Virus genome (UHGV): UHGV-1963645
Source of the DNA: a virus
Reading direction: 5' to 3' (one strand)
Length of the DNA: 64,000 bases
Shown: positions 30,002-30,666 of the stretch, piece after piece
How the letters are laid out: each line of letters opens with the position of its first letter
How positions within the stretch are numbered: position 1 is the stretch's first letter
Position numbers and translations under genes: made by a program
Notes under the pieces: model-generated
What the model was told of the DNA's origin: nothing
The model's input: only the letters and a program-made list of their open reading frames with translations
Database searches by the model: none

Positions 30002-30666
30002 ACTTGCCGGGTACGTCTCCGGCGAGGGCTTCCACCTCCGTATGCTTTTCGGCGCACCGCGCCCTGGCTGCAATTCGGTAACAGGGGATGCACAACCCTG
30101 GCTTCCAGCGTGATTAGCGCCTTCAGCATGACGGGATATACCCGTAAATTCGTGGAACTGTACCCAAAGTGCTGTTAAGCACCGCTGTTACGCTGAAAAG
30201 AAAACGCAACAGGAAAGGACGCTGACCAACAGATGGCCCCTTCTCGTTCATCTGGTTAATCACACCAGCGCCCTTACCTGTTGTGCCTCCCCGTTCCCTA
30301 ATACACAGACGGGGACACTCTGCGGTCGATTTTTTGACGGGGGACGACTCATACCCCGTGGCATCTGGCTTCTTAGGCCGCTACCATCATCAGATCATCG
30401 TTTGCATTTACTTTAATGGTCAGTTTCTAAACCGCCGCAAAGTCGCTAACCATGACGAAAACCCTGAAAAAAACGCCCACCCGAAGATGGGCAAACTGGA
30501 AGCTCGTAACGCACTTCGGCGTTGCCACTTAGGCGCATGGTCAACCTGGCAACTCGGTGGTTTGTCTGGGAGGGCTAGGCCCAGCCATGCTTACCGCCGC
30601 GCCTGTCGCGGCTAACAGCTAAATCGCTCTATAAATCACGATTCATTGAGGCGATATTACACTAAT

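Follow-up and report, generated by a model that had tools for sequence, protein, structure and literature searches.

The question raised by this locus is what is encoded in the roughly 0.66 kb (positions 30002-30666, minus strand) lying between a C1 operator and tRNA-Asn in the virus genome UHGV-1963645, of which a stretch of 64,000 nucleotides (nt), hereafter the window, was analyzed. A preliminary description of this DNA had noticed that the interval lacked a convincing minus-strand open reading frame (ORF), and had offered a long structured leader, a small-protein gene or an unannotated non-coding RNA as its content; the observation was partly confirmed and its interpretation partly supported. 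The interval 29990-30700 was 99.4% identical to phage P1 (NC_005856), which makes the window P1-like, and 18 of the 20 matching phage records covered at least 80% of it. Taken as a whole, the interval is best explained as the opening part, non-coding but encoding RNA, of the ban-tRNA transcription unit that C1/Op72 controls in a P1-like phage; it is a composite that includes an RNA of about 175 nt (here called the tag RNA) which would capture the transfer-messenger RNA (tmRNA) of the host and replace, or at minimum block, its tag. The probability of this explanation, proposed function included, is put at about 0.55. Positions of the elements are given in Table 1.

Table 1. Elements of the interval and its flanks, in transcript order (positions in the window; nt, nucleotides).
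Feature	Position	Strand	Description	Basis
Promoter P2ban	-35 30699-30694, -10 30673-30668	-		Transferred from P1 annotation
C1 operator Op72a	30667-30683	-	Perfect, ATTGCTCTAATAAATTT; overlaps dmt stop codon	Operator scan and P1 annotation
Promoter P1ban	-35 30682-30677, -10 30659-30654	-		Transferred from P1 annotation
C1 operator Op72b	30656-30672	+	ATTACACTAATAAATTT, 2 mismatches	Operator scan and P1 annotation
dicF-locus-like leader	30517-30611	-	"dicF-like region" of P1	~77% identity over ~95 nt to segment immediately 5' of DicF
Terminator-like hairpin	30467-30493	-	GC-rich, UGCCCAUC UUCG GGUGGGCG plus U7; directly 5' of tag RNA	
Tag RNA (~175 nt)	30462-30288	-	Antisense domain, resume region, tag frame, helix 5, two pseudoknots	
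Antisense domain	30428-30462	-		Duplex folding and local alignment vs. E. coli tmRNA
Pairing block GUUUUCGUC	30462-30454	-	tmRNA 96-104 (tag codons 3-5)	
Pairing block GCGAC	30446-30442	-	tmRNA 87-91 (across resume codon)	
Pairing block UUUGCGGC	30441-30434	-	tmRNA 74-81	
Linker and resume region	30406-30427	-	GAAACUGACCAUUAAAGUAAAU; U and A at -5/-4 of resume codon	
Tag frame	30373-30405	-	GCA AAC GAU GAU CUG AUG AUG GUA GCG GCC UAA (ANDDLMMVAA-stop)	
Helix 5-like stem-loop	30359-30386	-	Stop codon in apical part	Covariation
Pseudoknot a	30325-30359	-	Hairpin ACGGGG...CCCCGU; loop GUCG (30348-30345) pairs with CGAC (30328-30325)	Covariation
Pseudoknot b	30288-30324	-	CGCAG (30324-30320):CUGUG (30308-30304); UCCCCG (30315-30310):CGGGGA (30293-30288)	Covariation
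Module A	30205-30285	-	81-nt long hairpin starting with CACAACAGGTAAGGG	z = -4.7
Structured pre-tRNA leader	30002-30212	-	Runs directly into tRNA-Asn	
tRNA-Asn (GTT)	29927-30001	-		ARAGORN
tRNA-Thr (TGT)	29849-29924	-	Follows tRNA-Asn	ARAGORN

Coding potential of the interval

The longest minus-strand ORFs of the interval were 46, 45 and 34 amino acids long, and the claim that none of 60 or more was present between the operator and tRNA-Asn held. Conservation was checked over 46-50 distinct P1-like versions of the interval, and no ORF conserved in length or frame was found in them on either strand of 30002-30666. Depending on the version, the longest ORF measured 34-87 amino acids in the sense of transcription and 58-146 in the opposite sense. 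The best-looking ORF, of 34 amino acids, had ACG in place of its ATG in 24 of 50 versions, and an antisense ORF of 110 amino acids had no Pfam match. The small-protein option was discarded for these reasons, with no conserved ORF, a start codon lost in about half of the variants and an antisense ORF matching no Pfam family. Since the DNA itself was 89-100% conserved among the P1-like versions while no ORF was, the sequence is constrained, yet not as protein.

The suggestion of a structured leader or non-coding RNA pointed in the right direction but was much too unspecific, since the interval is a composite of several RNA elements; a single uniform leader of 660 nt is contradicted by the terminator-like hairpin and U7 run at 30493-30467, which split it. 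The Rfam scan proposed in the preliminary description returned no match in the interval at gathering thresholds, and a permissive scan gave a sub-threshold match to tmRNA_permuted (RF04321) at 30478-30373, ending on the tag frame (24.1 bits vs. a gathering threshold of 47).

Tag frame and kinship with tmRNA

Another tmRNA model, RF01850, scored 14.1 bits on the tag region (threshold 84). Relatives gave higher scores with tmRNA_permuted, namely 39 bits (E = 3.8e-5) for a 110-kb plasmid and 32 bits for an IncY plasmid, both from Klebsiella. The 3' two-thirds of the tag RNA correspond to the mRNA-like domain of tmRNA. As in tmRNA, a resume codon opens a short frame with a hydrophobic/alanine end, lacking both a start codon and a Shine-Dalgarno sequence. 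Ahead of the resume codon, the U at -5 and the A at -4, important for frame selection in E. coli tmRNA, were likewise retained.

Two pattern scans of viral contigs recovered more than 200 loci. A minority were bona fide circularly permuted tmRNAs, with a canonical T-arm, a CAUCUCC-ACCA end and a GGGGAUG 5' end, called by ARAGORN at default settings; the resume 18-mer of the tag RNA was also present in these permuted phage tmRNAs. Most loci, including all the P1-likes, gave no ARAGORN tmRNA call. The bona fide permuted (two-piece) tmRNAs were located in IMG/VR contigs L007, L018, L044, L064, L073, L097, L100, L103, L113 and L124, and their tags were ANDERFALAA, ANDDVYNLALAA, ANDEKFRIAA and ANDDAFYGEVRLAA. 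A further permuted tmRNA, in contig L031 (tag ANDEKYALAA), had an unusual T-loop, GGCAGUA, and was missed by ARAGORN.

The tag was compared among 35 distinct nucleotide versions, all from loci without a tmRNA call. Exactly ten sense codons followed by a stop were found in 35 of 35 (TAA in 33, TAG in one and TGA in one). Codon 1 was GCA or GCT and codon 2 AAC or AAT, while codon 10 was an alanine codon (GCC, GCT, GCG or GCA) in 34 versions and CCC in the remaining one. Positions 6-9 were almost always hydrophobic or alanine: position 6 was always M, V, I, Y or F, position 7 was L or M in 34 of 35, and position 9 was A or V. No comparable conservation was found in the other two frames of the tag region across the same versions. 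This pattern is the signature that a translated ssrA-type tag would leave, and points to coding-type selection.

Complementarity of the 5' domain to host tmRNA

The 5' region of the tag RNA was folded against the E. coli ssrA sequence (L228), taken as the host target. It was colinearly complementary to tmRNA nt ~67-106, a stretch running from the 3' strand of pseudoknot 1 (PK1) through the resume codon to about the first five to six tag codons; tmRNA nt 74-81 are assigned to the 3' strand of PK1 on the basis of the E. coli structure. In local alignments of 38 distinct 5' regions with the reverse complement of E. coli tmRNA (300 shuffles each), the best alignment lay inside tmRNA nt 53-108 in all 38 and started at nt 68 in 32 of them. 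Scores were 26-43 vs. 15 ± 2 for shuffled sequences, none of the 300 shuffles reached the observed value, and the sense control scored 13-19; the P1 window itself scored 33 (15.6 ± 2.3 for its shuffles).

Predicted duplex energies between the ~35-nt domain and tmRNA nt 64-110 followed the same trend. The value for the P1 window was -35.4 kcal/mol (shuffles -15.6 ± 3.1), and those for relatives were -32.3 (MK54), -27.3 (Alf5), -28.7 (phiEa104) and -36.8 kcal/mol (CBA120-like), against shuffle means of -11 to -19 with a standard deviation of ~3. The blocks that are invariant in the family (UAGUUUUCG, GCGAC, UUUGCGG and UUUUUA) are exactly the tmRNA-complementary ones, with a variable insert between them. 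Because the tag regions of the phages have diverged from the host sequence, the antisense domain matches the host better than it matches its own RNA. The target segment was nearly invariant in 116 tmRNAs with the conserved enterobacterial 5'-end pattern, mostly from Enterobacterales and Pasteurellales, which explains why the 5' blocks are shared by phages of Escherichia, Salmonella, Klebsiella and Erwinia.

A natural knock-out variant was noticed in the Klebsiella plasmid pSCKLB684-mcr (L003, 291-1460 and 1500-1600), where a TnpB-family insertion sequence (IS) sits immediately upstream of the resume region and has removed the antisense domain. The tag RNA copy concerned has also lost pseudoknot a through a 36-nt deletion.

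Folded structure of the tag RNA

An alignment of 30 diverse members, window included, supported a two-part helix 5 and two H-type pseudoknots. Standard pairs occupied 91.5% of the cells, vs. 31-48% when partners were slid by 1-3 columns; both sides changed in 20 of the 29 pairs, and the observed covariation score was reached by none of 500 shuffles. The stem between the loop of pseudoknot a and its downstream partner was found as CCGA:UCGG, CCAG:CUGG, CCAA:UUGG and, in P1, GUCG:CGAC, and paired in 100% of cells, as did stem 1 of pseudoknot b, the loop of which (GUAUUAGGGA) was conserved. The tag RNA thus has, like tmRNA, its stop codon in helix 5 and pseudoknots downstream, with six helices backed by covariation. 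A long-range UGCG:CGCA helix suggested by RNAalifold was rejected, as it clashes with the covarying stem 1 of pseudoknot b.

tRNA-like domain and candidate acceptor partners

No acceptor stem with G3·U70, no T-arm and no 3' CCA were found for the tag RNA. ARAGORN at default settings called no tmRNA in the window, and only the three tRNAs were returned when the window and P1 positions 1-48000, which take in the part of P1 absent from the window, were scanned for T-arm/acceptor combinations with a custom search. The ANDDLMMVAA tag was reported by ARAGORN only at a threshold of 80-85%, with unconvincing tRNA-like domains; the tmRNA calls at that threshold were rejected, since they either lacked both G3·U70 and a canonical T-loop or fell inside dmt, and comparable junk calls were obtained in coding genes at the lowered threshold.

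In many relatives (e.g. Klebsiella phage MK54, phiEa104 and Alf5) a sigma-70-type promoter is so near that the start of the RNA must fall a few nt ahead of a conserved GUUUUCG, and in others an upstream hairpin of unrelated sequence was present; the family itself is therefore devoid of a tRNA-like domain in cis. The idea that GUUUUCG(AC) is the analogue of a tRNA-like D-loop, with the upstream hairpin as a closed permuted acceptor stem, was abandoned because that hairpin is not conserved and is replaced by a promoter in many phages. The motif is better explained as antisense to the tag codons of the host. No consistent site complementary to the conserved 5' region was found in cis or nearby, the sole recurrent match being an alternative pairing with hairpin 1.

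Several tRNA-like RNAs were observed in these neighborhoods. The window carries one, T1, at 29764-29630 (minus strand), and further ones at ~29505-29568 and ~29238-29261. Their common features are an acceptor stem of 7 bp (UGUGAUG/CAUCACA), hairpins resembling a D-arm and a T-arm, the latter with a 9-nt loop (AGAUCAGCA), and a discriminator A, followed by CAC rather than CCA. The minimum-free-energy fold of T1 was a cloverleaf (z = -1.25) with neither G3·U70 nor CCA. Homologues of about 130 nt (UGUGGUG...CNCCACA-A-CCA/CAC) follow the tag RNA in contigs of ~46-kb siphophages. A different RNA, of 150-170 nt, stands beside the tag RNA in Erwinia phage phiEa104 (L224, 456-623) and in the SSU5-like Klebsiella plasmid NZ_CP155713 (L002, 1752-1906), upstream of it in one replicon and downstream in the other. 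In phiEa104 it reads GGGUGAUUCUG, a canonical T-arm and AUCACUC-G-CCA, and the RNA of both replicons resembles a tmRNA lacking the coding sequence (CDS), but with G2·U71 rather than G3·U70. Finally, in Escherichia phage Alf5 (L223, FelixO1-like) an unannotated, D-armless tRNA-like RNA of 82 nt (~861-942) lies ~40 nt downstream of the tag RNA; its sequence, CGGGGCG ... GCGGGUUCGAGUCCUGC CGCCUCG-A-CCA, carries G3·U70, A73 and an encoded CCA, i.e. the alanine identity set.

Distribution and genomic context

A search of phage sequences with 221 nt of the MK54-type element gave matches in 772 records, and in 106 of these the match spanned 80% or more of the query. The groups matched included ~46-kb siphophages of Klebsiella and E. 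coli, Ackermannviridae (CBA120, Det7), Felixounavirus, Erwinia phages, an N4-like phage, SSU5 and the P1-likes. Among the matches listed, no record named the tag RNA: most had no feature at the place, and a few had 'hypothetical protein' ORFs only. In all seven phage and plasmid relatives inspected, including MK54, CBA120, Alf5, phiEa104, FSL SP-058 and the SSU5-like plasmid, the element lay in or beside a tRNA cluster. Of 5426 complete E. coli genomes, 660 carried the P1-type RNA, with 582 of its locations on plasmids and 140 on chromosomes, and none of the E. coli genome records listed had a feature of the Prokaryotic Genome Annotation Pipeline (PGAP) over it. No description of the tag RNA was found in the searchable literature on tmRNA-like or dicF-like RNAs of P1 and other phages or in the supplements of the tmRNA database paper, the P1 genome paper lying outside this coverage. 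The tag RNA is a conserved phage RNA, unannotated in the records listed, and is proposed as a new family that combines a domain antisense to tmRNA with a tmRNA-like coding body.

Proposed function and alternative explanations

When C1 repression is lost, transcripts from Pban would read through the terminator-like hairpin, or be processed at it, and the tag RNA would be released. Readthrough or processing must occur to some degree, since ban, 3 kb downstream, is annotated as controlled by Op72. By annealing to host tmRNA, the released RNA would cover the resume codon and tag of the host, and it would present its own resume codon, upon which rescued ribosomes would add a tag specified by the phage (tag swap); the minimum effect would be that host tagging is blocked. 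The swap is thought the most likely outcome because the tag RNA has maintained resume signals and a tag of its own. In its most explicit form, a 'piggy-back' RNA would hybridise across PK1, the resume codon and the first tag codons, rescue would proceed on host Ala-tmRNA-SmpB, and the phage would dictate the degron (ANDDLMMVAA and its variants). At this level of detail the proposal, drawn from the sequence, is a tentative one.

Several points weigh against the capture of host tmRNA with replacement or blocking of its tag. Every functional step in it is one that we infer. A strong terminator-like hairpin stands between Pban and the tag RNA, and no separate promoter for the tag RNA was found in P1, so that its supply would depend on readthrough. 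The predicted complementarity is broken by bulges (the P1 blocks being of 9, 5 and 8 nt), and the pairing would need PK1 to be opened in a folded, protein-bound tmRNA. The target is too conserved among hosts to reveal compensatory changes between phage and host, and the Rfam tmRNA scores are below the gathering threshold. The geometry of a tag swap on the ribosome is hypothetical, and we know of no precedent for a ribosome resuming on a template merely base-paired to the mRNA-like domain of tmRNA. Furthermore, the odd tRNA-like RNAs adjoining the tag RNA in other phages make a phage-encoded acceptor partner possible.

As one alternative, the RNA could be a pure antisense inhibitor that blocks or destabilises host trans-translation while its tag frame goes untranslated; resumption on a piggy-backed template has no known mechanism. 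The antisense complementarity is strong and universal in the family, and a phage RNA that inhibits tmRNA has been described, namely the RNA of mycobacteriophage DS6A consisting only of the tRNA-like domain (TLD; PMC4131195). An inhibitor needs no frame, yet the ten codons and stop are kept in 35 of 35 versions, the alanine and asparagine codons vary synonymously, any of TAA, TAG and TGA serves as the stop, and hydrophobic residues or alanine persist at positions 6-9; the UA at -5/-4 is likewise kept, and helix 5 and the two pseudoknots are upheld by covariation. This explanation is considered unlikely. Should the frame be translated with the help of a phage partner, the tag RNA would be the coding piece of a split phage tmRNA, of which the chargeable tRNA-like piece would be a separate phage RNA alternating with the hairpin modules. 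Permuted two-piece tmRNAs with the same resume region do exist in viral contigs, and candidates for the second piece are the GGGUGAU...AUCACUC-G-CCA RNA of phiEa104 and the SSU5-like plasmid, the Alf5 RNA with G3·U70, A73 and CCA right after the tag RNA, and T1 at 29764-29630 in the window. These candidates nevertheless vary from one phage group to another, and no complementarity with the tag RNA common to them was found; T1 has neither G3·U70 nor CCA; reference P1 lacks T1 and any canonical T-arm/acceptor RNA beyond its tRNAs; and in many phages a promoter lies directly at the 5' end of the tag RNA, where no acceptor strand is possible. As the antisense match to host tmRNA would also be left unexplained, a split tmRNA is regarded as improbable.

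A decaying relic of a tmRNA or tRNA cluster, pseudogenised and now of use only as a spacer or leader in front of the tRNAs and ban, would account for the missing tRNA-like domain, the sub-threshold Rfam scores, the gain and loss of cassettes and the Klebsiella relative with its IS insertion and internal deletion. It is very unlikely, given that the interval is 89-100% conserved among P1-likes and the element occurs in 772 phage records across several unrelated groups, that the tag frame is intact in every version, and that three helices and two pseudoknots show compensatory changes; nor would a relic hold its antisense blocks invariant while its own tag diverges. An attenuator-type leader only, in which the hairpin and the structures downstream regulate readthrough into the tRNAs and ban, agrees with a terminator-like hairpin placed 155-180 nt after the annotated promoter and with the Op72-controlled ban ~3 kb further on. 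However, unrelated phages carry the tag RNA with its own promoter and no ban, and neither the tag frame nor the antisense match is explained, which leaves this reading highly improbable for the interval as a whole; attenuation may still be true of the first 190 nt. The capture of host tmRNA by the tag RNA, with the tag swapped or silenced, is retained as the preferred explanation.

The remainder of the transcription unit

In the P1 annotation, the region comprises the end of dmt, Op72ab, P1ban and P2ban, a misc_feature "dicF-like region", trnA (Asn) and trnT (Thr), and the note to Op72ab reads "controls expression of ban". The perfect C1 operator reported in the preliminary description was present on the minus strand; at 30622-30638, where a weaker partner had been placed, nothing lay within 3 mismatches of the consensus. 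The real partner, at 30656-30672, overlaps the perfect site in opposite orientation, and both together form the divalent operator Op72ab. C1-operator-like sites in the window numbered 12 vs. 0.25 expected. A simple sigma-70 scan recovered neither P1ban nor P2ban. The composition claimed for the unit stood for tRNA-Asn and tRNA-Thr, both on the minus strand, and failed for upl and plp, which are on the opposite strand in the P1 annotation and thus outside the unit; the supposed tRNA-Ile is a tRNA with anticodon CAT at 27773-27848.

The leader that precedes the terminator-like hairpin, borrowed from a dicF-type prophage locus, is homologous to a segment which, in Qin/Rac-type prophage DNA (locus L004), is found directly 5' of a true DicF (77 bits, RF00039) that in turn lies upstream of dicB; this DicF-upstream segment was found in 4198 of 5426 complete E. 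coli genomes. No match to RF00039, the model of the 52-nt DicF core that includes the ftsZ-pairing sequence, was obtained up to E = 10 in 29600-30800. Membership in DicF was therefore rejected, the core being missing and flanking homology alone being present, and the 'dicF-like' label of P1 reflects that flanking homology only. The sole variable patch of an otherwise 97-100% conserved interval was seen inside this leader (30551-30600, minus strand), where the hairpin GGCUGGGCCUAGCCCUCCCAG is swapped in other P1-likes for unrelated hairpins, e.g. GGCGGGGUAGUGACUCCUUCCCC. The terminator-like hairpin (30493-30467) lies 155-180 nt past the annotated promoter. It also stands before the tag RNA in another genomic setting (L013, L094) and may therefore belong to the tag RNA element and not to the dicF-like leader.

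Downstream of the tag RNA, the 15-mer CACAACAGGTAAGGG was repeated on the minus strand, exactly at 30285-30271, 29847-29833 and 29632-29618 and in diverged form at 29149-29135, each copy starting a long hairpin module with a variable insert. A compensatory C-G to U-A change was found in module A of a Klebsiella relative, and many unrelated phages have such modules behind the tag RNA, interspersed with tRNAs and tRNA-like RNAs. The inverted core of the modules, CACAAC...GTTGTG, was seen to overlap the acceptor stems of neighboring tRNA-like RNAs. Within the pre-tRNA leader, a mini hairpin (CUGUUGCG...CGUAACAG) occupies 30212-30185, accompanied by small hairpins and by a long-range stem that resembles a diverged module, and the region 30300-30002 folds better than its shuffles (z = -2.65).

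With respect to reference P1, the window has an insertion of 196 nt at 29772-29577 (minus strand), bounded by repeated CTTACCGTTGTGATGAA module arms; it carries T1 and breaks the ORF annotated as plp in P1. Being bounded by module repeats, the insertion indicates that modules behave as cassette boundaries, and they are probably processing hairpins as well. As the insertion splits its ORF, plp is probably not a gene. This suggests that the plp annotation, and perhaps that of upl as well, is spurious and lies antisense to an array of RNA genes.

Elsewhere in the window, a small membrane protein and an SPFH/Band_7 lipoprotein (Pfam PF01145, E = 1e-30) were found at ~27880-28920 on the minus strand, upstream of the tRNA with anticodon CAT, in place of tciA-tciB-tciC of P1. 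The C4 antisense RNA and isrK pair was present twice on the minus strand, about 50 kb apart (890-1100 and 51045-51255), each copy near a C1-operator-like site (1175-1191 and 51325-51341, respectively). P1 presumably has a single immI c4 locus, which makes the second C4 copy notable. The sok antitoxin RNA was located at 47413-47587.

Significance and relation to known systems

P1 is among the best-studied phages, yet the tag RNA is unnamed in the records of P1-likes and relatives that were listed. If the proposed explanation is true, phages would manipulate ribosome rescue in two ways, with a complete tmRNA of their own or by antisense capture of host tmRNA with swapping or silencing of the tag. 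The tag RNA would then represent a new class of host-targeting phage RNA and a new viral route to re-programme host protein quality control, and would lend itself, as a naturally occurring tool, to the recoding or blocking of ssrA tagging. A template held to tmRNA by base pairing alone would, if confirmed, amount to a categorically new mechanism of trans-translation. Phage tRNA clusters contain RNA-rich spacers that lack an explanation, and some of these would also be accounted for. For P1 itself, the annotation is corrected in two places, the 'dicF-like' region denoting flanking homology only and plp probably not being a gene.

Among known systems, tmRNA (SsrA), and especially its permuted viral two-piece form, shares with the tag RNA the resume region (AAAGUAAAU/GCAAACGA), a ten-residue tag of the AND..AA type, a stop codon in a helix-5-like stem and pseudoknots after the tag, as reflected by the partial Rfam matches. 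The tag RNA differs in having no acceptor stem, T-arm, CCA or G3·U70, in scoring below the Rfam and ARAGORN thresholds, and in carrying a domain antisense to host tmRNA in place of the tRNA-like 5' end; having no tRNA-like end, it cannot be charged. It is a putative functional counterpart of the coding half of tmRNA, yet not a member of that family, because the test for a tRNA-like domain and the curated score thresholds failed. The DS6A TLD-only RNA and other CDS-less tmRNAs are partial tmRNAs of phages proposed to interfere with host trans-translation (PMC4131195, PMC11915505). Phage origin, partial character and the proposed interference are common to the DS6A and P1 RNAs, but they represent opposite halves: the former keeps the tRNA-like domain and has no tag frame, while the latter keeps the tag frame and has no tRNA-like domain.

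The dicF locus of Qin/Rac prophages (RF00039) resembles the P1 leader in its upstream segment, ~77% identical, and in a hairpin with a U-run at the equivalent place, whereas in P1 the DicF core is absent and dicB does not follow downstream. The species 1 and 2 RNAs of T4, to which the tag RNA may be likened, are structured RNAs that are co-transcribed and processed with phage tRNAs; no tag frame is known in them. The C4 antisense RNA of P1 has, like the tag RNA, a short single-stranded 5' domain complementary to its target, followed by a structured body. From trans-acting phage antisense RNAs of this kind the tag RNA would differ in that its target is a host non-coding RNA, tmRNA, instead of an mRNA, and its body is a translatable template.

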